Source: Stylophora pistillata (lineage: Eukaryota). Taken from it: DNA of 64,000 nucleotides. The DNA lies in NCBI RefSeq assembly GCF_002571385.2, contig NW_019217843.1, positions 664,796 through 728,795 of the forward strand. The letters are read 5' to 3'. The notes beneath the pieces were generated by a model that did no database searches, was not told the origin of the DNA, and saw nothing but the letters and a program-made list of their open reading frames with translations. Shown piece after piece: positions 10,401 through 40,700 of this stretch. Position numbers and translations under genes: made by a program. Position 1 is the stretch's first letter. Every line of letters starts with the position of its first letter.

Positions 10401-13400
10401 AGTAGTTTTGACAAGCGAGTCAAGTGAATCATGACCGATTTCAACCCTGTTTGCACGTGTTTGGGATCGTCAAATTGTGCCCAATTTGAAAACGGCTTCC
10501 ATCGTTTTTCTCAGGAATTAACAGGTATTTCAAGGTAAAAACTAAATGACATTCATACACTCACTTAAGGCTATCCATATGCAAAAAGACGAGTGAATTT
10601 GATTTTTTTTTTTTTCAACTTTGCCGAAGATTTGCGATTTTGTTTGATTCTTGCACGGGTCTGCTTTAAACACGGTTGTAGAGCATGGCATGCGTGACTC
10701 ACTTGCCACAAGCATTTTGAACCGTAAGACAGCGATCGAAAAATATATATGTTAAATACGTAAAGACGATTCCACATCGAGTGAAGTTTTGCCTTTTATC
10801 TAGAATGCTTTCACAGCTTGGCCGTGGAAGATCTGGGCACGAAACTAATGGTAGATTGTACGTATTCTGTTTCAGTGATATACTCTTGTCATAATAATGG
10901 TTCTCGTGCATGGTTTCGTATGACGAAGATCGTAGCCGCCAATCTCAAAAATGCTTACAAATGCGAAATTGACCGAAGTTTGAAAATAAAATGCTAATGT
11001 TCTATTCTTTGTTGTTTGGCGACGTGTAAATAACCGATAGCAGTTTACAACTCATTCAAACCAATTAAATATCATCAACCCTTTCACTCCCACATGTGAC
11101 CAAGACGTAATTTCTCCTTCTGCTATTAATAAATATTTCAAGCAGACAATTGATGACGATAAAGAAAAATTTTAGTTGACCTGATACCAAATTCTCTGAA
11201 CCAACATTTGAGAATTCTATAACAGACTGCAAGGAGAATTACAGGTTAAGATGCACACAGCGTCTTAAATTCGAGGGTAAAATACCGAGTTAAATAAATT
11301 GGGAGACCAACAAGGTGCAACAAAAAAAAAATTACATTTCAATGACGTCATCAATTTATTGTTAACAATTGACGTAAGAAGTAATACCTCCAAGATCCTG
11401 AATACCAGCGATGTCATCAGCATCGAGACACACGTCTATTGTGTCGAGGCTTATGGTTGGCCACATGATGGAAGTTTGAACAGAAGAATGCTTCAAACCC
11501 AAACTATGTCCTATCTCGTGTACTGCGACACGATATAAACTTTTGGTGCCTTTTAATACGTTTTCGATGGTATTGCCAAAGTATTCTGCACAGTGGGTAA
11601 AAGGGATATACCATGCCTCGGAACCGTCAAAGTGAACATCGCCATTAGGAGGATAGAAAGCATGCGCATAACTGTATCCCGGACCGTCGAAGGGTAGGCT
11701 ATCGTTGTGAGCATCTAAGACCAGAGTAAACATACAAGGTATCAGGGGAATACCATTCTCTACGGAGTATAGCTCTCAGTTATGCGTCGATTTAGTCGAA
11801 GCTTCAACATCTACCCAGGCTTTTGAACTTTTAAAGATTTGCCTGTTCAAATCCCCCCCTCCCCCATCGGGGGCATAAATTGCGTTCAAATTCAATTGTT
11901 CGCCCAATGTTTTTTTTTGTAAAAGGCGAAATCAGCGATCGTGACTTTCTACTCTTTGATCAAAGGTCTTGTAGACTTTGTTTTCTGAACCATTCACCCG
12001 AACTATTTGCCTTGCATACCTCTATGTTTAAAAATATCACACTTGAATTCCGCAAGAAAGACTTGACACTTCCAGTTTAAATTCCCCACCCCAGCCAGGC
12101 AAGGTTCAAATTTCCTACCCCCGAGTACGGACAACGGTCAAATGCCGGTAAGTTTCCCGGGGGGGGATGTTGAAGCTTCGAAATGATCAGCACATTAAGC
12201 AACTTGATTGACCACAACTGTAAGGTATGTAAGATAAGCAAAAGAATAAATAAGATGAGGCTAAATTGTTTTTTTTGTGGGCAGTAAAAAATAACACACG
12301 AAATAGCAACAAATAAGCGAGTGATCTGTTAAGTACTTCAAGCAAAGCGTGCATAGCTAACGTGTCTTGTAGACTGTATGCTTACAGCTGTTCTGAGAAA
12401 GATTGTTGGAAAAAAGGGTAAGCGCTAGCGCACGCGCCAATCTCGAAGGGTATCTGGGTATCCCGACAACCAATGAGAAGTCAGGGTTTGTGTACAATTA
12501 TTCGATTAACCGTGGTCACATAAAGACATTCCTAGCATTCAACGGCTGCTCGGGCTTTCCGTCAAAGCTGGCGACAACGGAAATTGTAACACGATAAACA
12601 GCGAAAAATAACGCCAAGAAGAAAAGAATCGGTAAGTTTTTCCCAAACATTCAGTTCTTGTGACGTCTTTCGATCAATTCTCTTTCTCTGTTACTAACTG
12701 GAGTTGAAAAGAAAAGCTGTTTATCGAGTCCTCCTTGAAAACCTTTCCCGACCCTACCCTACAAGAAAGTGGCGAAAATCCACATAGCATATTCCTCCTG
12801 CCTCAGTTTTTCTCAATGTTTTCTCCAGTCTTGTTTGCTCGCAAAGATTTCCCTAAGAACCTATAGTCAATTTTTAAAATTGTTGTGAAATGGTTGGATA
12901 ATTAATTCTTGGTGTTGATATTCATTCGCCAGGAATGTACTGAAAGATGATAAAAGGGTGTGGGGCGGACTAAAAAAAAACGCTTCTCGGTCTTTCACCA
13001 GATATACTACGAACTAATAAAAAAATTAATTATATATATATATATATATATATAGATATAATTCATTTATCTATTTATATTCATATATAAATAGATACAT
13101 ATCTGAGGCACTAACTGATTGCTGTTTCTAAATTTGGGTCATTGAAAAATGCCGGTAGCGGTAGGTAGGTGGCACGATCTAGCTTGCATCTAATTATACC
13201 ACTGAGGTAAAATTTTGAAGTTACTTACATTTGGCAAACTTTAGTACTATGTCCACGTTACTATTCCAGTGAGTTTGCCGCTGGAACGTGAATCGACTTA
13301 CTTCTGCCCAAACCCTAAATGCATGTTCAAAAACGATTGCCGGTCTGTAAGGTACATTGGCGTACCAGGTAATATTTTTGTGACCCCATGTGGAACTTGA

Positions 13401-13877
13401 TGTTGCATAGCGTCGAACTCGCAAATTGTGGTTCTGTGATAAGTTGGTGGTGCGATCAGCCAGATGAGTATTTTTTGCTGCTTCCTTCAGCTGTCGTGAA
13501 ACTGGTTTTCTTCTGATCCACGGTTTTGAAATGCTTTTCACTTTCTGCGGGCGTTTTTTTGACATACGTTCGGCCGTTTGTCGAACTTGTAAACTGCTGT
13601 CGAAGTCCTAGGATCGGTTCAATAAAATTAGTGTGAGATGATGTGGCGCGTGTCAAGGACATACGACCTATTGCCATCTCCCTTACGCTCAATGAGTAAC
13701 AGATAACTGACCTCTTTCAGTTCAGTGTTTAAGACTAGTAAACATCATGATACTTGCCTCGAATGATGGAGGTTGTCTTTTAGATACAAATTTCCTTGAG
13801 GTGTGTGGCCTTGTGTCGCATTCGCTTAGGAGCGTCGTCAATAAAATCAGTGCCACTTGATAAAATATACACTCCAT
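7436..13877 (-). CDS. Matrix metalloproteinase, MMP21-like (signal peptide, atypical prodomain, M10A catalytic domain, hemopexin domain; ~480 aa, 4 exons)
   Basis: Exons 13877-13758, 13607-13229, 11714-11388, 8052-7436; total 1443 nt. Intron 1 is GC-AG. Furin site RVRR; structural-Zn region HNDSLPFDGPG..AHAF..GDVHFD; catalytic HEIGHSLGLKH; Met-turn SIMWP. The hemopexin domain follows without a hinge (GKC..NIFDW...FFNICDI*), resembling vertebrate MMP21 (GSC..AFDW...WFDVCDV). Confidence 0.9.
8262..10665. mobile_element. Non-autonomous Kolobok-like DNA transposon with long imperfect TIRs and TTAA flanks, in MMP intron 3
   Basis: Left end TTAA|GAGCAAATCCGTGCAAAAATCAAACA; right end reverse-complements to TTAA|AGCAGACCCGTGCAAGAATCAAACA. 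Subterminal inverted block GGTCATGATTCACT(C/T)GACTCG...AAAAC(A/T)ACTGCGCT at ~8459-8513 and ~10381-10436. Confidence 0.75.
9476..9880 (+). mobile_element. 5'-truncated CR1/L2-type LINE 3' end nested in the DNA transposon
   Basis: Encodes an ORF2 C-terminus (PKFTGPRVWNSLPTSITNSNSLRIFRKALKNSILNSYSF*), then a 3'UTR with hairpin GGTCATCCA...TGGATGATC and a (CTT)n tail. Confidence 0.75.
11781..12197. mobile_element. MITE in MMP intron 2 (related copy at 59057-59425)
   Basis: Terminal inverted repeat CGAAGCTTCAACATC ... GATGTTGAAGCTTCG. Internal blocks TTTGAACTTTT(A/G)AAGAT, AAAAGGC(G/A)A(A/G)ATCAGC and GAAAGACTTGACA(C/G)TTCCAGT are shared with the 59-kb copy. Confidence 0.75.
13031..13060. repeat. 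(TA)n microsatellite
   Basis: TATATATATATATATATATATATAGATATA. Confidence 0.9.
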
Positions 13878-16800
13878 CTTTTCAGTGTTGTCAGTCGGTT
13901 TTGTGTTCTTCGTGTGATCGGCACGGTTGTCTCTGCAATATTGACGAATCAGTTGTTATCGTAAGTATAAGTTGCCTGTGTTGTGCAGTATAAAGTTACA
14001 CACCACTCATATTACACCGGAAATCTCTGCTGGCGGGAAACTCTCCCATTGATAATGGATTAATCATCTTTGTTTGCTTGTGTGTAGCGTATAACTACAG
14101 AGAAATTCTGCCAATACGCATTAGGAAAACAAAAATAAAAATCGAGAAAAAAAAAAAAGAAAAAAAAAGATATATCAATGCTTTAGATTAGCCTTTCTCT
14201 AATATGGCTTTCCTTCACTGTCTTAGACGCAAATTTTGCTATGTCACCTTCAACTCCACCACTTTTAATACAATCGTTGTACCCCTACACGATGTCACCG
14301 TCTCGAGCCAGGCGATCATTGTGTATGTGTGTTTAATATGAAAAAGAACTTCCTTCCGCGCCGGAACTTCTTTTTTCAGATGTGGGATCTACGTAAGAGA
14401 GCTATTGGAAATTGTTAAATCCGATCAAAAATTAGTTTCATCATTTGAAAAGAAAAAGACCTGTATTCGCTGACATTGCTCCAGAAATTCTTGTAAATGT
14501 AACTAATGGACAGTCTTTCACCGTGTGTGATTTATTTACGTGTGGGGTATACAGGATATACGTCAGAAAGCAACATCAGGAAAAAGAGAGAGGGAAAAAA
14601 ACATAAAACCAAACTTCGAGAGACGAAATGATAGAAGGGAGAAATAAAATGAACATTGTCACTAAAGCTTTGTTATACCATCATGTAGTCAAACACAAAG
14701 ATGGACTAACATTTACAAATGAATAGTTTCGTTTTAAAAAGGTGAAGACTTTGCTTATTTACAGGATTTGTGGGAAGCATGCCGGTCGCCCGGTCTCCAC
14801 CGCACCGGAACTATGTAACGAACGTGATCAGACCCAAATATTTACATTCTGCTATGTTCTAGGGTCTGACTGTCAGAATGGCAGAATGAATGATTGAATG
14901 GTATGTCAAAGGACTTCCCATCAATCAGCAAGCCTTTTTACAGTATTTTAACTTTGTTTTATATCGGCCGCACAGTATTCAACTCTAGTAAAAACGGAAT
15001 TGCCACAAAAATGTACGGAAAAGTCCGACAATTACAAGATTATTCCTGTATTTCGCTCGGCGGAAATACAAAAAATTTTGGAACTCTCTAAGTCTACATG
15101 ATATCTGCCTCAGGCTTAAAAGTCTTTGCCTCTAAACAATACGATGCTTTGTCATTTTCATCGTTTTGCATGAAGATTTCATTCATAATCCGCAATTTTT
15201 TTACGCAACACTGTCAAAGAACAAAAGGCTAAGTTATCCAAAAATTCCTTTCTTAAGTCCTTTTGTTTGAAAATTGAATTAATCATTATTCCCTCTCCAA
15301 ATCTTCCTTCATTCACAAAAAAAAAAAAAAAAATTACCCAATCACTTAACCTACTGGCACCACTTAAAACGCATACGTAACAAACATTGGCAACATTCGT
15401 TGGTGTTAAGCCAATAACTTCTCGGAAGAAAAAACCAGTTAACAAAACATTTCTTCTCTAAAAGTCAAAATAATTTGATCCCCTTGGATTACTAGCCTTT
15501 GTACCTTATTTGCAAAATATGCCGGCCGGCATGTTCATCAGTTTGCTGAAGCTCAACTCTTCTGGGGAAAATTGAAAGAACAGGCATTTTGAAGGTCCAG
15601 GAGAGCATTTAACCAATGCAATGACGTGGGTCAACACTTAGGCAGGCAAGCATTACTTTTCAACATGCCATATTGCCTTTTAAATAACATTTTCGTGAGT
15701 TGAAAAACGTTTATAAATTCCCTCACGCATCGTTTCCTGAAAGGGTTCAACCACATGTAAACAAACTGGGCAAAGTCGAACTGGTTGCTTGAAAGATTTT
15801 TGCTCAGTAAAACATTACGACTAATTATTCAGTACTTTAAAAACATTTTTAAGCATCAGTTGTTCGCCCACGCTTAGGAATGCATTATGAAAGAAGAAAA
15901 GGGAAGCTAGTTTAAATTATCGCCAGCTTTTCATTTGAAAAACGCTTTAGAAAGTAAATTTGAAAGGGATTGATATTTTTTTCAGCGTAAAAAACCACAG
16001 TATATTGCAAGCTTACTTTAGCAGTTCAAGTTACTCCAGTCCAGGCTGAGAAACCGGGGAGATCAACAAAAAATGAGAAGAAAAGACTGAAAATTGCTGG
16101 TAAACGTTAAGTCAGGGTAACTTGAGTCCGCCAGCATTGGAAGTTTCCCGGGCTTAAAGACAAATAATGTGGTGCACTGACCAGACATCTCGATTTCTCT
16201 GTATAAATAGCGCCATTGCTATTTAAATCCCGTTTTCATTTTTAAAGAACTTTTACGGTTTCCAGCAGCAAAAACTGAGTGCTTATAAGAGTTCGTTAAG
16301 TTAATTGAATTTAAGAAACGGTCGTACATAAGTTTTAAGTTCAAGCCTAATTTCAGTGCAAATTGGCAACGTCCTGATATACTTCAAGGAATTAATGTCG
16401 CGCCACTGTTAAGTTTGGCGGGAATATTAAGAGGTAATACGTTAAGAGATGGAATCCGCTATGTTCTGATACCTTCCGGTCACAAATACCGAATTAATTG
16501 ATTAAAAGATAAAAGATACCTCTTGTTGATTCCAACAGGTACGAAAGCTATTTCCTCTATAGCAGTATAACATCAAAACAACCACACGCGGTTTGTTAGT
16601 AGTTAGCACTTCAGCGAATCGTACCACGCGACAGTTTGCTATTTTTAACAAAACTTTTTAAGATATGTTTACAAACAAAAGGCTGCTCATGCGATTAAGA
16701 CACGTGATACGAGTTCTGAGCTATGTTACATCCGTACGTCCCCAATATGTCCGTACGTCTTTTACGCGAATTAAAGGAAATTTGCTAAGTGCTAATTTTA

Positions 16801-18899
16801 GACCAAGGACAGTCAAAAAGACCTGAATAAGATGCAGAGTATGTTTGGGACACTAGAACAGAAAAGTCTTAACAAAGGTAAGGAAATCGACTAAGGTGGT
16901 CAGTCAGCGGAATCGTGAGTATTGGCCATCGCGTGAGAAGCAAATTGATACCATCGGTGATCCTTGAAACACAACACACATACCATAATTCAAACGTTAA
17001 TTGGCACCTAGGCCGATAGGTTCTTAGGTACCCAGCTGAGGAATGCAGCTATAAGAGTCAAAAATAGTGCTTCAAACACGTAGCAACATGAAGCGACACT
17101 GCCATTTTGGCTCAAAACTCTTGTTGAGCGCACAAGTGGTTTTTGATGATAAGATGTTAATAAATCCATTTGGCAAGTACGTTAGATGGAACCTCACCGC
17201 CTTGAACAAGTTCCGTTCTTACGAATAAGTGTTTCTTTCAAGTTGAAATACCCTTAACTTAACCGCACTCTTTTTAGGTAGTCATCCAATCCATTAAAAC
17301 GCACATTCCTGAATTTTCCTCAAATTTTATCATCGACTCTTTAATCTTTTTAACTATAAATTGAATCAATCGAGTTTCCTACACAAACTGCCCTAGAACG
17401 ATCAAAGTTGTTCTTTCCATACTCCGAGAGAGATGGCGCATACTTTTAAGTAAAAGGCATTAAACTTCTTGGGATTCTGAGAAGTTTATCAGGCTCTCTA
17501 AGCACCGGTGAATTAATTGATCGAGCTGAAGGCGACACAGCATGTTAAGTTATAACTAATAACAAGAGTATTATGGGTGCTACCATATGATGAGTTCCGC
17601 CGCATAAGAACAAGGATGTTCTGTTTATTTTCAGTCCGTTTCCAATTTTCTTACCTATTACAAGTTCACTCACTGACCTAAAGGTATCATTTAATGAGAA
17701 TAAAGCATTATTTGAGAAAGTTCAAGTTCACGTCTTGATAAAGTTCAATCAAGTTAGTAGTCATCATGCGAGTCACTCACGGTCAGTTACGGCGGGTCTA
17801 AAAAGATAACATCTGGTTAACGCACCTTTGATAACTTCAGTATGTGTTGGTCTTAGGTTTGGCCAAATTTGAATTTCAACAGGGTTGTTGTCTAGAGTTA
17901 ATAAGCGCTAGTGTCAGTATAAAAAATTTTCCTTGTCCGCATTGAAGTTGATGAAATGTTCTACAATCAAAACCTCCTACTAGCATTATGGGTAAACTCT
18001 AGAGTCTTCCAGAGAACACCGGCCTGTTTATTAGAATAATGATATTCATAAAATCCATGTTGTCAAATTATCTCTAGAAGAGTTTCAAAACACGAAAACT
18101 AACGGGTGCTATGAATGATGACTCGCACACTACATTATGCAATTCTTTTAAAAGTACTTATGTCAACTGCTGACATGTGCTGCTTAAAGTTTGGGATGAA
18201 GTTATGCCGTCTTTAATGAGGTAATGTAAGGAAATACAAGAAATTTACTTTGTGGTCATTCATTTGAAGGTTACAAGCATTTGGCTTCATTGCAAGGATT
18301 ATTATTTTTCTATCTATTCATGCTATATGAGGGACGATATCCTGCACAAGCGCTCAGGGCCAGAAGGGCAGCATTGAAAACTCATCCGATCTTTCCTCAA
18401 CTCGTTCATATCTTAAGCTTCGTCAGGATTGAACTTCGTTCATCATGTTCCCGCCCCACATAGTTATATTAAGACTGTTGTGCTATACAGCTCTCTAGAT
18501 TTTAATTGTGAGGATTGTGAGGTTGCACGCAACTGCCTCACTGAGATCAATTAGAACATATTTATCAGCTAGTATTTCTGTTTTGGTTGATAGTAAAACA
18601 ATCTTCGAGAATTCTCCAACATGCATGACGCAAATTACTGAGCCTCTTCATGGGTGTTCATTTTTATGACATTTGTTAAGAAAAGAAGAACAAATTTAAA
18701 AAACAGAATAGGAGAGAAAAAAGTGAAGTTTGTCTAACTTTAAACAACCTTACCTCAAGATAGTGGTTTTAACGCAGATTATCAAACTGCTCTCACCTAG
18801 TTTTCCGTCTTCTGATAATATGTTATTTTCCTGGATTGAGCTTCCATTTAAGCATTTATTGGCGCGCGTAAGCTGATCACATGTAAAGTTGCGTTAAAC

Positions 18900-26532: not shown

Positions 26533-26610
26533 TTTTTTTTTCTTATGAGGCCATCTCTTTTTCTTTCTTATGAGGCCATCTCTTTTTCTCTTTTATGAGG
26601 CCATCTCTTT
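26533..26610. repeat. Three-copy ~26-bp tandem repeat spanning the KANSL3 stop codon
   Basis: TTATGAGGCCATCTCTTT x3; on the minus strand this reads AAA GAG ATG GCC TCA TAA (KEMAS*). Confidence 0.9.
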
Positions 26611-29600
26611 GGGGACGGAATCGTTGGATACAGGGCCGGCAGACGACGGTTTCTTTACTTCCGATTGAGTTGCAGCAGTAGTTTTTGTTGATGCGGCCAC
26701 TTGAGCCACTGGTACCGTTTTCGTATCCTGCTGGCCAGGATTTCCACCGCTGCCTAAAGTGGCCGCAGCATTCAGAGTCGGATCACTTTTTTTCTCATTC
26801 GATACACTGAATACTGTCTTTGTCACCGCTCCAACCTTATTACTGACTGATACCCCTTGCACTGACGGCCCCACTTTGCCGGTAGATACTGCCGTGGAAG
26901 AAACCACAAAGGAAGCGGAAGCTATGGAAGTGACTTGTGAACCAACTACAGGGTAACTTATCGTTTTATTGGTCACAATGGCTGTTCCAGACTGCACATA
27001 AGTAACTGGTGACCCGGATGAGACGACTCTAGTGATCTGGGTAGCTGCTGGCCTCGCCACCGTCACCGCACCCGGGAGGTTTGGTACCACTGAAGTTTGG
27101 GGGTTAGTAGTTCTACTAGTTACTGTTCTCTGTAGAGACACCACCTGGCTGGGAACGGTCCTAACTGGCTGACTAAGGAGGGTGGGTGCTCGTGTGTTTT
27201 GGACAAGGGTTACTCTTCCACCAGCTGGAGAAACTGAGCTGCTACTATTCAGTTTTCCGGCTAAAGCAGCAAGACTTACAGGCAACGAGGTGGCAACCGT
27301 TCCTGATGCCCCTGGCCCTTTCTGGTTGATCACTGTCTGAGTAGCACTAGAAGGCGATCGCACAGGATGCCCAAACATAACTTGGGTTTGACCAGTCAGG
27401 GTGTTAGTTCCACTGCCTACAGTTTGAAATGTTGTACCACTAACCAACTTGTACGATCCTTTGAGACCTTGGGACATAACAAGCTTATTTCCATCCTTGG
27501 TCAAAACGCTTATAGTTGAAGGCTGAGAAGCGTCACCCACTCGGGTGAAAGAAGGCCTTCCAGAAGTCAGGACAGCTGACGATGGGGAGAGCTTCCCGAG
27601 TGAAGAGGCTGCAGATAAAGATGTACTTGACGTCGATACAGCTCCCGATGGAAAAGAAGGAGCTTGCGTTGTTACAGCAGCCCCTTTGAGACTCACAACA
27701 GAAGTAAATGAAGAACTCGGTGATTGTGAAAGAGGTGTTTGCCTGACTGGCGCTGACACAATGGTCCTCACAGGTAGCTGGGAAGCGGAGGGTACAACAC
27801 CACCCTGAGCAGACAGAGCAGCACCAACAGAGTTGAGGTTGACAGAAGTCTGTCGCTGACTTTGAGGCTTAATGATATACTGTACAGTCTGCCCTGCTGC
27901 AGCATTTGACGACAAGACCGAAGGAGAGCTTCCTCGCGGTAGAGTAATGAATGTCTGTGTGACCCTTACACCAGGATCTGAGCTCTTCGGAGTCAAAGAA
28001 ATGAAGGCTTGACCTCTGTTGGCGGTGGCCAGTGCTCCTGCCGACGCACTTGACAAGGGCACTTGGCGAGCAACAGTTGTTCCGTGTAAAGGAAACCCAG
28101 TGAGGGAACTGGGGTGCACGGGAATTGCTTGAGGAACACTGGTAACTACCGATGTAGCTGCAGCTCCAGTCACGTGAATGACACTTGGAGGCGGATTGGT
28201 TGGTTTTGATTTAGACCTGGAGGTCCTCGGTCGTTTAGCTGGGCTGGGCTGGCTGAGCGAGCGAACGCTGCTTATAGCCCCCAATGTATTGCCCAGCGGT
28301 AGCTTGAGTAACGTTTTCCCTTGTTCTTGAACAGAAGACTTCTGGGAGGTCGACTTCTTTGCCGATGCTTGTGACGTCAGTGCTTGCTTACCTACCGAGC
28401 GATCCAATTCCGACGACAGATCACGTGAGACTGATCGTTTCCTTTTCTTTTTCCGAACATCGACTTCGTCCATGTCTGAGGAGTCGTTTCTGTTGTGAGA
28501 ACTGTTGTTGCTCATAGACGTCAAAACAATTCCTAAGAAATCGCCGATTTCATCCTGGAAAGGACCGAATTTCACAATGAAATGAGATTAGAGAATTGTT
28601 GTTAAATTGCCTTCTTAACATTTTTAAGTTCTAGGTGAAATTTGATTTGCAGAGAAAATTCGAAAACCACCTGCAAGATTCCAGCAGCTCGAACTGTCGC
28701 AATTCCACAAGCGGCTAATTGCTGACCTATGCAAAATCCTTCCTCTGCCTGATGAACAAGTTCAAAATGAAATGACACTTACCATTATTAATCGATCCAC
28801 CATGCTCTGAGTTAGACGCTCCTGTTTCTTCTTGGCACGACTTAAACGCAACTAGAGCACAAATAAGATGCCATTACAAAAACTGCATTTTTAGCCTCTT
28901 TAGGGAAATGATGGATTGACCCCCAAATGTTTTTCACAGCAACGCGGTAATGATTAATGTTTACCGAATTAAGAACCAATAGTTAAGAACGGAAAAATAG
29001 AGCAAAAAAAGCCCTCGTAAAACTCAAACTTACGTTTTTCCGTTAAGACTAGATGAAACTTCGAGCAAAACAAAAAGAAATATCAGAAGNNNNNNNNNNN
29101 NNNNNNNNNNNNNNNNNNNNNNNNNNNNNNNNNNNNNNNNAGAGAGGAAGGTCCGGGTCCGGGCACATGCTCCCCCGGAAAACTTGAAATTTGAAACTCT
29201 CTGCGACATGATTTACAGTTTTCTGGGACATATTTCAGTATTTTTGTTGTACCAGACATTGATGTTATAACCACTTCAAAAATATTTATTTTGTCTCTGA
29301 TCGCAATTCAGAACCTAGCCGGTACCTAGTCTGACAGCCGCCCCGCCTACTGCCCTCCAACGATAACCCTGATACCCTAGACTAGCCTTAGAAGACTAAC
29401 TAAACTGTTCGTCTTCTCTTTCTTCCAACAAAAGGCTTGTATCTGTTCGAATTTTCTCGCCCTCTAACGATAACCTTGATATCCTAGACTAGCCTTAGAA
29501 GACTAACTAACCTGTTCATCTGCTCCTCCTACCACCAACAGGCTTGTGTCTGTTTTCATTTTCTCGCGCATTTCCTAAAATAACAACAAAAATGAACAAT

Positions 29601-32600: not shown

Positions 32601-35600
32601 TCTGAAACATCAATTTCTTGAGATTCAGGTGCAGTTAAAGAGTCCATAATATGTAAATATTTATATATTCCATTACAATATTTTGTTATCCTTCAAAATA
32701 TATTATTTTGAGTGATTTTAAACTAGTTGTATTTGTGTCCGGATAGATATTATTGCTATGGTAAGGATAAATTCTGTCTTGGTCGCTCATGAGATTAAAA
32801 CTGTGAAACAGGATGTACAAAAGAAACATAAGAAAGAGACTCACTTTTGCTCTGAGGGTTTGAAGGACATCAAGGTAGCAAGCCAACAAAGGAATACTCA
32901 AGCCATCCACTAAGGTACTGTGCAACCATTTCATTAAATTTGGATCCTATGGAATAAAGTATTATAAAGTATTGTCACCAGAAAAAAGGTAAGAATTAGA
33001 ATAAATATCTTTGTTTCATGCATTTTCTTCTTCTTTTTCATCAGCCAAGAGCCTGCCATATGACTGGTGATTACTGTAACTTCACACATATAATGGTATG
33101 TTCTTGCTTGGTACAGTTTTACTATGTTTAGTAGAAAAAAAAAATTTATCCACACATTTCTGCAACATCAGAAATATGCAAAGTTATCATTGAGGAAAGG
33201 TTCTAATCTTCAGTTATCAAAAGGAAACATTTAGTTTAGTGATGTGCTGGTATACAAAATGTTGTGAATTCACTCAACACTCAGTTTTACTATACTCAGG
33301 GCATCTGACAGGATGTGGGGGTGCGGATCCGCATAATTCACCTACTTCCGTATCCTCTGCATCCTTGAGGCATTTTTCCGCATAAAAAGTCTAGAAAATT
33401 TCTACGTATAAGCAAGAAAGCAACTGCTTACCATCCTCAGAAGCAAAAATATTGATCATAAAAACTACATTTTTTTAATCGTTTCTGGGATTTTCCGAGG
33501 TTAAAATATCTTTAAAACCAAAATGAAAGCGAATACAACAGATGCCCCCTCCCCCCAATTCCCAGGCCAGACCACATCACAGTAATCTCCTGAAGTGGGT
33601 TCTTTAACATCCCCTACCTAATCAAATTAACTAATAAATAGATGCAGGAGACGGGACCTCTATTTATTTGTCCCTATCCAAGAACACTAGAATATCTAAC
33701 CATTTCGTGATGTTATAGAAAAGTAGGATATTCTTCTCAATCATTTTAAGGACCTGAGTGTTGGTCCAGCTAGGGCTCAAACCCTTGACCTCCCGCACAA
33801 CAGTCTGGTGCTTAACCAATTGAGCTAACTGGTTTCCATGTCTCAATGTGGTCAAAATTGTTAAGGACTCTCATTCTGCAATGTTTCTGTCGTAGTGACT
33901 CAATTCCTTCTAGAACTTTTCTTTGCTTTAATCCTCTCTCTGTTGCTACGATCTCTGCGTTTTCCCCATCAACACCACTTTGGCACTCCATGGTGTGTCG
34001 TGCCAAGCCTCCATCTTCTTTGCCCATCCATTTTTTGGCTGATAGAGTGTTTCCTTTATGAAGGTCCTCATTTGTTAGTCTCACTTTGTCCATGTGTTTT
34101 TTCTTTCTTGTTTGGAAAAGGCACCATGTTTCTCCTACATACACAGTATTCTGGCAGTTGCAAGGAATCCTATACACAACGCATTTTTGCTTTTCACCAA
34201 GTGGCTCTTGACATGTGTGTTTAATCACTTTTACCTTTCTTCCAGGCTTGAAAGCAACTTGAAAAGAGTGTCGGTTAACAGTTCTTCTGAACTGTTCAGA
34301 TAACCCTTTCAAATAATTATGGTATGGTCACGACTCCATGACTTTCCTGTTCTCTTTTGTCTACCTGTTGAGGTCTTTGTTCCATAAATCTTTTCACTGA
34401 TTCTCTGGGGTATCCATTTGCTACAAACATGTCTTCGATGTTGCATAGTTCGTCTTCCAGGTGTTCTTCATCACATAAAGCCCTCGCTCTGTCAGAAAAA
34501 CCTTTTATAATGGCTCTTTTCATACTTTCTGGGTGATTGGACCTTTTCTTCACATTTATGTTTGTGTGAGTCTTCTTGTAATGGACAGAGTACATTATCT
34601 TCTTGGTCTTTCTGTTTACAGTCTGCTTTAAATCAAGTACTGGTAAAGCATCTCCTTGGTTGATCATTTTGAAGAAGTTATTCACCCAAAAAAAAGCAAC
34701 GAAAACATGCCTTTCATTCGTAAACAATTTTAAACTGCCTGGCGTTCCATGCATCTTCTGGTGATGGGCCTGGGTTCTACTTTTGTTTTAATATTTTGGG
34801 ACTTCTGGTGTCCAGTTTTCCTCGTCCAATTTAATGGCTGGTTACTAAGCTTCGGACAAACTCAACAATGAAAACTATGAAAAAACTGCATTGAACGAAG
34901 ACATACCTGTCCATGAATGGCAGCAAAAGGTCAAACATGTCATAAAGGACAAAAATTCTCGGTAAGACATTAACGTATATTTTATACGTTGGAAAAAGCC
35001 AAGGGAACAACTTTATAAAGTTTTAAAAATTTCCGCAGAATCTGGCATCTTTTCCACATAATTGTCACTTTCTTCCGCATAATATTGCCGAAAACTTCCG
35101 CATAATTTTCCCTTTTTTCCCCACACCCTATCAAATGGTCTGTATATTAGACCATAACATATCAAAAGGATATAGTTTGGGACCAATTGTAAGAAAACGA
35201 AACTCACCCATTCTGTTTCACTTAAGATTTGTCTTGTTCTCTTGGTTGCCTTATCTGTTGTTATACGTCTCATAACAGGCTCATTGGGAAGCTGTAAAAA
35301 CAGACATTACATCAGCAGGTCAACAAATTCTGACTCTTTCAGCCTAGAGAATTCCAAAATTCCCTATGGAATTCCCCTACTAGGAATTTTGATTTAATTG
35401 GTTTGGATGTTTTCCAGATAAGAAGTCCGATCCTTCCTAACTTTAGTGTTTTCAAGTCTTCTATGAACCTTTCTAAAGCTTATGCCCAGTCTTCTAAACC
35501 AAAACAGCAGCAAAAACATGCTTAAAGTTCTAATGGACAGTGTTGGTTTAACAGTAGGGCAGATTCACCACTCACACCACAGTACCTAAAGAGCCTGTTC

Positions 35601-37727: not shown

Positions 37728-40700
37728 ATGAGTAAAGGTTGGTCACAAATCACATTTATCTTTCGAAGACAACACGTTATTTGTATTATAAGCTTACAAG
37801 TCTCTTGTTTAAACTTCTTCAAGATTTAGCGTAATTTACTGTATAGGCTACAGTTGCAAGGTCAAAATTGCATAATCATTGACTGAACAAAGTTTTACCC
37901 AAGGCTTGTTGTCCTCATTTTACTGTGGGTGTGCATATATATGAGTGTGTGTGTGTGTGTATGTGTGTGTACAAATGTGTATTAAAGTAGAATGTCGAGT
38001 TAAAAATTCCTGTGGGCTTCTAAGCTCTGGGCTGATAAGCTATTATAAATGTACCTCTACTATCTTCCAACGTAGACCTCTTAAGCTTTCATGCTTTGTT
38101 TATCCATTTCAGGTCTCGGGGGAATTTCGCAGCTTTGTCATTTGTAAATTGTGCCTACATAAACGGGAATAAGGCGAAAGTCGGAAAAACGCTTCTCCAG
38201 AGTATTATCACATTGGCTTAAATTGGTAAATAAACCATGATATAAACTTGAGAGGTCTATTGATGTAGACTTAGGGAAGATTTTATGAATCGAGGTTTTT
38301 AGTTAATTTAGCTAAGCATTTATTACTCTATATTTTGATGTGCAAAAGTGGCTGCCCACTTATGGAACCATTAATGTTATGGAAGAAAAAAAAATCTTTT
38401 AAGTTATGGGATCAGAACCTCTTATACTGGAGACCAAGTACCAAAAACATTAACTCAAAAAGGAGTAAAACTTGTAGTAATAAGGAAATAAATTAATTTG
38501 TATTCATTAGGGAAATCAATTAATATTTTATGAATTCTAGGCGAGTCTTGTTGTCATGGCTAAAATTACCGCATACACTGTATTATGTTTTTTCAAATTT
38601 TCTAACCTAACCCTAACCCTAACCCTAACATCAAGTGCAAAAACTAGTGTGGTAGTGCATTAGGGAAACTGCTATGGCCTCTTAATTTCGCCCACAGCTG
38701 TAAGATATTTCTTTTGTTTACTGTAAGTCTCTTGAAGGTCTGACACTATGAGGAAACGCTGTAAGTATTATACTGTGCCTTTTTTTCCCATCTCACTAAA
38801 GGTGGCATTTCAGTTTCACTTGTCCTTAATCTTAAACAGTATCTGTTTTTTTTTTTAAATTTTACAATGAATATTAAGCTCAGTTAAAAATTTCTACCTT
38901 AGTTGAATCCTAATTTCCTTTTTATCCCAACCTTGGTATAAATATTTGACCTTGTATTAATTTTATTGCAAGATATACTGGCAAATGATACATTTCTTTC
39001 CCATATATCCCAATTTTACTTGATATCACTAGTGAATATGACTTGCTTCACATTTAATTTATTTAGTAATAATCTATCAAATATTGTTGCCTGCAAGCAC
39101 AAGGTCTGAACATACACTGTAGCAGGGGACTAAATACATGTATTTCCCAACTAATACCTGGGAAGATCCCAGTGATATTAACCCCTTGTGTTATTTACAA
39201 GTTTTCAAACCTTGCCTCAGATACTAGGAAGGTTTAATCTAATTGAAGATGGGAAACCATTTATGCCACAGTGTGTTTGGTCGAAAAGAAAACCAAGGTC
39301 CAATACATTTGGCAAGTGACTGGTTTGCTTGGTTGAACTCAACTGAACAACTGAAAAAACCTAGATTATACATCTTAAATTAAATGATTTATGTAACAAA
39401 CATTGCAATATTTCTTATGATATATGAATTTAAATAAAGCATTTGTGCAACAGTAACCATAAATAGCACGTGCATTGAACTTAATTATGAATTTTAATAA
39501 ATAAATTTTCATCAGTGAAACATAGTCAAGGCTGTGGTCTAGCAGTGCCCAATTTTAGTTTTTTCATACAAAGCATATGCTGGGCACCCTGGATTTCACA
39601 GTTTCAGAGCACTGCAGGGCTCCATTCAATTTTCCTTAGAGCACTGCCTTGCACAGTGGAAGAAGAAATCAACTGTTTGTTGATAGAACCAGACCATATA
39701 CTCTAACATTAAAAAGTCAACAAGCCACTCTGTCAAAAAAATATAGTATTAAATGTTTTTTCCCCTAGCTCAACTTCCCTGCTTTGGCGTGGATATCGGA
39801 GGAAGCTTGGTCAAATTAGTGTACTTTGAGCCCTGCAATTCACAAATAAACTGTAATGGACAAGACAAAGTTGGCTTGGAGGCAATACAAGATTTTATCA
39901 AGTCAAATGTAAATTATGGAGAAACAGGAGCTAGAGATGAAAGGTTGGCAATGGAAAATGTGGTTTTGGGAGGAAGAAGAGGACATTTGCATTTCATTAG
40001 ATTTTCAACTGATGTGGTGGGAAAATTTCTTTTACTTGCTGAAGAATTAAATGCATCAGTCCTGAATGACAAGGTGTGTGCAACAGGTGGAGGAGCATTC
40101 AAATTTGAAAAGGATTTTAAAGAGGTATGTTTTTTACAGAAAGATGCTTTTAGTCTAGTCATGAGCATAGGAAAAATTAACAATTCCGAGTCGCCATGAG
40201 AAATTGAACCTCAGACCTTCAGATTCTATGCTCCAGTGCTCTTCCACTGAGCCGCAGCGACTATATGGTGACGTTCTTATTTGACACACGTTTTGCATAC
40301 AGCAAAGAGTGCGGAATCCGAAGGTCTAAGATTCGATTCCTAATGGGGACTCAGAATTTTTCTCTGTCTTACACTTGTGACTAGACAAAAACATCTTTCT
40401 ATTAATTTCTTTACTGAGCTCAAAACTTGCCATCTTTCTTATTCTTTAGGTTTGATTTTGTTTTCAGAAAGGTATTACTTTTTATAAAAAAACTACCTTA
40501 GGTACTCTACGTATCAGTTAAATGTTAAAAAGTAACACACATAAAAGTTTAACACCCTAACCTGAACAACTTCACTAAATTTATTATGCAAAGGCATGGT
40601 TACAGGGATGCTGTAAATTGTAATTTGGAAAGACACATTGCCAATTCATTTGTGCAATATCAGACATTCAAGCCACTCGCTAAAGTTACATTTGACCTGT

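Follow-up and report, generated by a model that had tools for sequence, protein, structure and literature searches.

Within a window of 64,000 nucleotides of the stony coral Stylophora pistillata (NCBI RefSeq contig NW_019217843.1, positions 664,796 to 728,795), which is the whole stretch of DNA analyzed here and the frame for all coordinates below, we find a single matrix metalloproteinase (MMP) gene, encoded on the minus strand and marked by the only zinc-binding motif detected in a scan of all six frames. The encoded enzyme has an intact active site and lacks the cysteine switch, the textbook means by which MMPs are kept latent. This switchless MMP is real, expressed, and conserved across several coral families, and within the cnidarian MMP lineage to which it belongs, the loss of the switch is confined, among the sequences compared, to stony corals. 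Our preferred reading, to which we would assign a probability of about one half, is that this is an expressed coral MMP that is likely secreted, cut once by furin after the motif RVRR, and leaves the cell already mature.

The coding sequence is split over four exons (13877-13758, 13607-13229, 11714-11388, and 8052-7436) and amounts to 1443 nt, encoding 480 amino acids, a product 100% identical to XP_022783750.1 (P0005), which NCBI names "matrix metalloproteinase-16-like [Stylophora pistillata]". The stretch is present in 20 of the 24 listed sequencing runs (nine studies), and runs of RNA type contain 63-70% of its words, as expected if only exons are represented; runs X21-X24 contain almost none of them, which is not evidence of absence. 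Contigs from four runs were compared, namely X1 (RNA by guess), X7 (RNA on record, from another study), X5, and X10. The exon 1-2 joint (13757/13606) is direct in contigs from two of the four (X1 and X7, two studies), and a single X1 contig (2729 nt) runs across the three coding joints and an upstream joint (13932/18754), which bears out the proposed exon chain at the RNA level. The X7 contigs cover the exon 1-2 and exon 3-4 joints and the X5 contigs those of exons 2-3 and 3-4; X10 yields unspliced pieces only, with no joints. Exon 1 (13758..13932, from the gene model and RNA contigs) comprises 5' untranslated region (UTR), the start ATG at 13877, and residues 1-40. It is preceded in the one X1 contig by an upstream 5' exon of at least 31 nt (18754..18784, minus strand, GT..AG ends) spliced to 13932 and devoid of an in-frame ATG, and the 3' UTR (6500..7435, X1 and X5 contigs) runs on past 6500. 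It should be noted that the contigs are evidence that the transcript is present, and neither of its level nor of the cell type; a term search of the main text of the Stylophora cell atlas (PMC8162421) found no mention of MMPs there.

An exon that could supply the switch is absent, since the exon 1-2 joints are direct and intron 1 (13608..13757; 150 nt, GC-AG, phase 0) has stops in all three frames, and a search of the window in six frames gave no PRCG-like motif. The initial annotation had considered a missing exon unlikely given so short an intron, and no transcript with an additional exon supplying PRCGxPD was seen. The four-exon layout recurs in a genomic orthologue (L015, one of 80 loci retained from 113), where intron 1 is 157 nt long and in phase 0, and the 11 kb of this locus likewise hold no PRCG-like motif in six frames. 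A missing exon or mis-annotation is thus ruled out by the RNA joints, the stops in intron 1, and the matching four exons of L015, and a pseudogene by the open frame and the RNA contigs. As a separate observation, intron 1 has a GC donor, and the Pocillopora meandrina model CAH3142077 is apparently mis-spliced there.

By its catalytic domain, the protein is classed as an M10A matrixin. Pfam recovers a Peptidase_M10 domain (E 6.6e-38), which starts in the remainder of exon 2 (13229..13409), and four hemopexin repeats. Exon 3 (11388..11714) encodes the zinc-binding motif HEIGHSLGLKH (residues 232-242, 11488..11520) with Glu233, the Met-turn with Met250, the structural-zinc ligands His169, Asp171, His184, and His194, and the calcium ligands Asp176, Gly177, Asp196, and Glu199, all of them intact, as the initial annotation had stated of the active site. 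The predicted catalytic domain superposes on those of MMP-1, 2, 3, 7, 8, 12, and 13 with Z of about 23 and a root-mean-square deviation (rmsd) of 1.3-1.8 Å over about 150 residues. Exon 3 also encodes Cys208 and Cys262, an extra pair found in the pocilloporid proteins only and in no other coral, with a third Cys in Pocillopora; as strands adjoin the two residues in the predicted model, the pair may form a new disulfide close to the S1' loop. Exon 4 (7436..8052) encodes the four-bladed hemopexin domain, with Cys278 and Cys478, and the stop codon. A hinge is absent, one residue separating the Gly at the catalytic end from the first hemopexin Cys across the orthogroup. The protein ends two residues past Cys478, and its highest 19-residue hydropathy beyond residue 22 is 0.9; the C-terminal transmembrane segment or glycosylphosphatidylinositol signal of membrane-type MMPs (MT-MMPs) is absent, so the database name MMP16-like is misleading. 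The working mode is likely closest to that of the furin-activated secreted MMPs.

The propeptide (residues 23-106, 84 amino acids) is encoded by the end of exon 1 (residues 23-40, 13758..13811) and the beginning of exon 2 (residues 41-106, 13410..13607). The whole protein has cysteines at residues 3, 20, 208, 262, 278, and 478 only, and hence none from residue 21 to the furin site, and the PRCGxPD motif is absent. The propeptide holds 23 Lys/Arg and 6 Asp/Glu (net charge +17), seven dibasic positions, and a single R-x-K/R-R site, RVRR at residues 103-106 (13410..13421), much as first annotated. Tyr107, which follows this furin consensus, superposes in the model on residue 100 of MMP-1, 83 of MMP-3, and 79 of MMP-8, the first residues of those mature enzymes. 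Ahead of the propeptide, a signal peptide (residues 1-22, 13812..13877) is predicted from hydropathy, an AlphaFold helix at residues 3-17, and a shuffle test; its cut is presumed to fall after residue 22, and an earlier one would retain Cys20.

The three-helix prodomain typical of the family is not recognizable by Pfam, by model confidence, or by structural matches. Pfam finds no PG_binding_1 at E<=1, and matches to the structures of proMMP-1 and proMMP-2 begin at residues 110-111, leaving the prodomain unaligned. An AlphaFold model from a 118-sequence alignment, most rows of which carry canonical prodomains, has a mean predicted local distance difference test (pLDDT) score of 81, mostly above 85 in the mature part and below 50 for residues 19-103; it replaced a model from 9 sequences with a mean of 59. 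Because true propeptide homologues are few, the low pLDDT is weak evidence for the disorder predicted here. Searched alone against the ESM Atlas, the propeptide found nothing above chance level (best 0.83); the whole protein found MMP clusters only.

To place the protein among its relatives, we surveyed the best 120 of 416 hits, where six switchless clusters with a whole N-terminus group together: Stylophora itself, Pocillopora (P. damicornis, P. meandrina), Orbicella faveolata, Oculina patagonica, and two Logan clusters. All named species belong to what we take to be the robust clade of corals; no full-length orthologue from a complex-clade coral, and none named from Acropora or Porites, was seen among the matches listed, which is no proof of absence, and the Porites hit P0328 proved to be another, switch-bearing MMP. 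The four non-pocilloporid clusters have no cysteine at all ahead of the catalytic domain, and at no common place do the six propeptides share a Cys, Asp, Glu, or His. All six lack a PG_binding_1 match at E<=1, and each has a single R-x-K/R-R site, located at the mature N-terminus. Net propeptide charge is +16 to +27 throughout, with catalytic domains at -6 to -11 and hemopexin domains at -2 to -9; the Stylophora protein, at -6 and -6, is net negative in the regions that the initial annotation called acidic, though only mildly so. For comparison, 203 other MMP hits were reduced to the 131 that have a complete N-terminus as well as a switch and a furin-type site (dropping 1 without a zinc motif, 20 without a switch, 40 with a short or odd N-terminus, and 11 without a furin-type site). 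Their propeptides, mostly from related bilaterian proteins and not independent draws, have a net charge of +1.2 +/- 3.6 with a maximum of +11, and none of the 131 reaches +16. The non-pocilloporid corals share 59-82% propeptide identity, and Stylophora and Pocillopora 68%, compared with 73-91% in the catalytic domain; the Stylophora propeptide does not align significantly with those of Oculina, Orbicella, and the Logan cluster P0015 (z 0.5-2.4, shuffle test). Two further relatives, L005 and P0330, lack their 5' ends. Exon 2 of L005 (1282-1380) encodes about 31 propeptide residues, with a lone Cys placed 13 residues ahead of the furin cut; the loss may therefore not extend to the stony corals as a whole.

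The nearest relatives outside the stony corals keep the switch: PRCGVKD in the jellyfish Sanderia (EP00794_P005716), PRCGVED in Rhopilema (XP_065071686) and a JGI protein, and PRCGVTE in the anemone Nematostella (XP_032234028). They belong to the same clade and share the hinge-less junction and the furin site, 23 residues from the switch in Nematostella and 12-15 in the jellyfish. The three jellyfish orthologues also retain a recognizable, full prodomain, with weak PG_binding_1 matches (E 0.1-0.3), and the two measured have near-neutral propeptides (+3 and 0) and hemopexin domains at +1 and +5. In Nematostella the switch is kept, the propeptide has a net charge of +14, and no PG_binding_1 is found at E<=1, an apparent intermediate state. 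The "distinct cnidarian MMP subtype" initially proposed is therefore too broad, since anemone and jellyfish orthologues keep PRCG. The Hydractinia orthologue XP_057290136 (P0426) has a variant switch, an Ala in place of the catalytic Glu, and a degenerate structural-zinc region, and is a probable pseudo-enzyme.

In mature-domain trees the cnidarian proteins form one clade, comprising 12 of 55 rows in a quick tree (Shimodaira-Hasegawa-like approximate likelihood ratio test, SH-aLRT, 99) and 14 of 20 rows in a second tree (100/99). The two pocilloporid proteins are set apart by a long stem (1.12 and 1.45 changes per column) and have no resolved position inside this clade, and the switchless corals are not recovered as one clade in free trees. 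A single coral clade is not rejected by the approximately unbiased test (p 0.141 with nine coral rows, 0.067 with seven, leaving out two partial rows), which is no proof of it. We favor a single origin of the loss because the coral N-termini match: the first 30 residues of the Stylophora protein align with those of Oculina, Orbicella, and P0015 at z 11.7-16.1, compared with 3.5 for Nematostella and 0.6 for Rhopilema.

Among characterized MMPs, the closest in architecture are MMP21, MMP11, and MMP28 (MEROPS M10A), which likewise have a signal, a propeptide ending in R-x-K/R-R, and M10 and hemopexin domains, but which keep PRCGxPD and a helical prodomain, whereas the coral protein has neither and carries a polybasic leader. 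MMP21 is described (PMC2656525) as having a furin site, no hinge, PRCGxPD followed by an insertion of 20-44 residues, and a unique cysteine in the catalytic domain. The label "MMP21-like" in the initial annotation holds for the furin site and the missing hinge and fails for the switch with its insertion. As to cysteines in the catalytic domain, the pocilloporids have Cys208 and Cys262, and the other corals have none. No protein named MMP21 is among the hits listed, and an MMP21-type pattern applied to 434 fetched proteins fits only the cnidarian proteins and one amphioxus group. "MMP21-like" should thus be read as a description of architecture, and the protein is not assigned to MMP21.

The loss of a switch is in itself not new, given precedents in MMP23, echinoderms, amphioxus, and karilysin. 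MMP23, cited initially as the known atypical case, is indeed described as lacking the motif (PMC7290392) and as furin-activated (PMC2656525), yet it is not the sole exception; it also lacks a signal sequence and ends in a cysteine-rich/Ig tail where the coral protein has four hemopexin repeats. Some echinoderm MMPs are reported without the switch (PMC8467561). In amphioxus, the XP_035686111 cluster (four of six members read) has no propeptide cysteine and no furin site and is not polybasic, in contrast to the coral protein, and by these features is a separate lineage. Among the Branchiostoma proteins, P0305, P0439, P0440, and P0443 form an independent switchless cluster with neither propeptide Cys nor furin site that keeps the PD of the motif, a candidate aspartate switch, and P0098 and P0180-P0183 have an acidic propeptide with a reduced switch (FCG) ahead of the furin site. 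The bacterial karilysin likewise has no cysteine switch, and its M10-type catalytic domain fits the model closely (Z 23.5, rmsd 1.3 Å), but it uses an aspartate switch (PMC9629494), and no Asp is conserved in the coral propeptides. Three Hydra transcripts without a PRCG-type propeptide are also reported (PMC12642232), though they may be incomplete. As for a link to venom, the jellyfish proteins JVMP17-1/2 are described with a PG-binding prodomain, JVMP17-1 with seven exons (PMC9414644); nothing connects them to this lineage. Our literature search, thin on subscription papers, found no description of a switchless coral MMP, and a full-text search for the protein accession gave no match.

In the reading we prefer, residues 1-22 would be removed as a signal, and a furin-type convertase would cut Arg106-Tyr107 in the late Golgi, before secretion. 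Mature MMPs, as seen in collagenase structures, tuck their freed aromatic N-terminus against helix-C aspartates, and the cut would free Tyr107 to pack in this way against Asp266/Asp267, which are conserved here; the furin site can thus be explained without latency. As furin processing would precede secretion, selection on zinc-blocking latency may have been relaxed, with the prodomain bundle decaying first (the Nematostella state) and the switch later. The leftover basic, disordered leader would confer weak latency at most and could act as a spacer or as a folding or sorting aid, and activity would be controlled via transcription, the timing of secretion, and inhibitors such as TIMPs. Counted in favor are the furin site, kept in all six clusters although the Stylophora propeptide is otherwise so poorly alignable, and the lack of any residue type (Cys, Asp, Glu, His) held in common across the six propeptides. 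Intracellular activation by furin is described as the rule for MMP11, 21, 23, 28, and the MT-MMPs (PMC2656525), and a working analogy is provided by ADAMTS9, 13, and 17, metzincins of family M12B with another domain architecture, whose propeptides are reported to impose no latency (PMC5296908).

Several points weigh against this reading, which is built on sequence and predicted structure. The 131 furin-type control MMPs keep their switch, so being processed by furin is not enough to render the switch dispensable. The retained propeptide charge, together with a propeptide identity near the catalytic level, suggests that the propeptide has a function, and the kept furin site is equally compatible with latency. 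The low pLDDT, with few true propeptide homologues behind it, neither proves disorder nor excludes binding, and the proposed order of losses depends on one anemone sequence.

The strongest alternative is a charge-based latency that we regard as possible though clearly less probable, in which the polybasic propeptide would wrap the acidic catalytic and hemopexin surfaces and keep the cleft blocked, with no residue binding the zinc, until its removal by furin. The opposite charges of propeptide and mature domains in six of six clusters, the absence of comparably basic propeptides among the 131 canonical ones, and the retention of the furin site would all fit, as would the near-neutral propeptides and neutral or basic hemopexin domains of the switch-bearing jellyfish. 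Charge is moreover kept as the sequence drifts, and in close pairs the propeptide varies little more than the catalytic domain does. However, the acidity is nothing new, as orthologues with a switch have catalytic domains of comparable charge (-4 and -5); pocilloporid and other coral propeptides have no docking motif in common; and Nematostella, at +14, still has its switch, so charge need not replace it. A wider version, held just as tentatively, is that such ligand-free latency, through a disordered polybasic propeptide removed by furin, evolved in stony corals, that the jellyfish-anemone-coral series shows the replacement of the switch, and that in pocilloporids the enzyme later turned into a rapidly evolving recognition protease whose hemopexin domain is diversifying.

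It is unlikely that the N-terminal segment is something other than a plain signal, either an uncleaved anchor as in MMP23, where furin would both release and activate the enzyme, or a poor targeting sequence leaving part of the protein inside the cell via its basic leader. Residues 1-22 are more conserved than the rest (z 11.7-16.1), the n-region is acidic, and the gene model PFX29825 (P0125) has an N-terminus longer by 69 residues. However, the hydrophobic core is short, at about 13 residues, and gives way to a region of small, polar residues; the orthologues share the start Met, L015 has an in-frame stop just upstream, both ATGs lie in a strong context, and of the upstream exon the RNA covers just 31 nt, which hold no in-frame ATG. 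The signal peptide is conserved more strongly among corals than the catalytic domain, with 22 of the first 22 residues identical between Stylophora and Pocillopora and 11-12 of 21 to Oculina and Orbicella.

Replacement of the switch by another zinc ligand, whether a retained Cys20 or an Asp/His switch as in karilysin and astacins, appears quite improbable. Metzincins with an aspartate switch are known, the MMP karilysin among them (PMC9629494), Cys20 would be retained if the signal were cut after Ser18, and L005 has its lone Cys close to the furin cut; against this, Cys20 is a Ser in the four non-pocilloporid orthologues, which have no Cys before the catalytic domain, and the six propeptides contain no invariant Asp, Glu, or His. 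Least probable is a decaying or catalytically inactive MMP with no need of latency, as the long pocilloporid branch, the 7-residue deletion ahead of helix A in the pocilloporid copies, and the Hydractinia orthologue without its catalytic Glu might suggest, since the zinc motif, Glu233, Met250, and the metal ligands are all kept, the predicted domain superposes closely on active MMPs, exon 3 differs by 0-1 letters in the RNA contigs, and the slower-evolving corals are likewise switchless.

Contigs from X5 (partly also X7) carry a divergent version of exon 4, with 43 differing letters over 6500-8049, a 3-nt gap, and a compensating indel pair; among the 32 differences listed, 16 are coding, and the 14 of these outside the indel pair fall in ten codons, all ten non-synonymous. 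The same divergent contig has no differences in exon 3 and three in exon 2. Five Pocillopora proteins compared with P0128 differ, summed, at 18 hemopexin versus 2 catalytic positions. The exon 4 pattern hints at diversifying selection on the exosite domain or at a second paralogue.

Elsewhere in the window, C-type lectin and PAN-domain exons (3432-3947 and 4243-4707, plus strand) lie just downstream of the MMP gene and convergent with it. Further features are a pantothenate kinase (Fumble) exon (39753-40199, plus strand), a TMEM127 exon (59633-59980, minus strand), and a 664-residue Ser/Thr/Val-rich exon without a Pfam match at E<=0.01 (26593-28587, minus strand). Retroelement remnants at 53557-55017 (plus strand), 55290-55841 (minus strand), and 33812-34327 (minus strand) comprise a PHD and endonuclease frame and two GIY-YIG frames.

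What the coral case presents is an expressed, clade-wide loss of the switch, with an apparent intermediate, in full-length enzymes that bear hemopexin domains; as stated at the outset, the coral orthologues are switchless and the Stylophora copy is represented in RNA contigs, the opposite of an unexpressed copy among switch-bearing relatives. The polybasic propeptide in place of the switch sets it apart from earlier switch losses. The series of jellyfish, anemone, and coral orthologues offers an opening to ask if latency is needed at all in an MMP processed by furin, or if charge by itself can provide it. For the corals themselves, a protease that, if our reading is true, leaves the cell active, with a hemopexin domain that varies between alleles, would be a candidate for matrix remodeling or defense.

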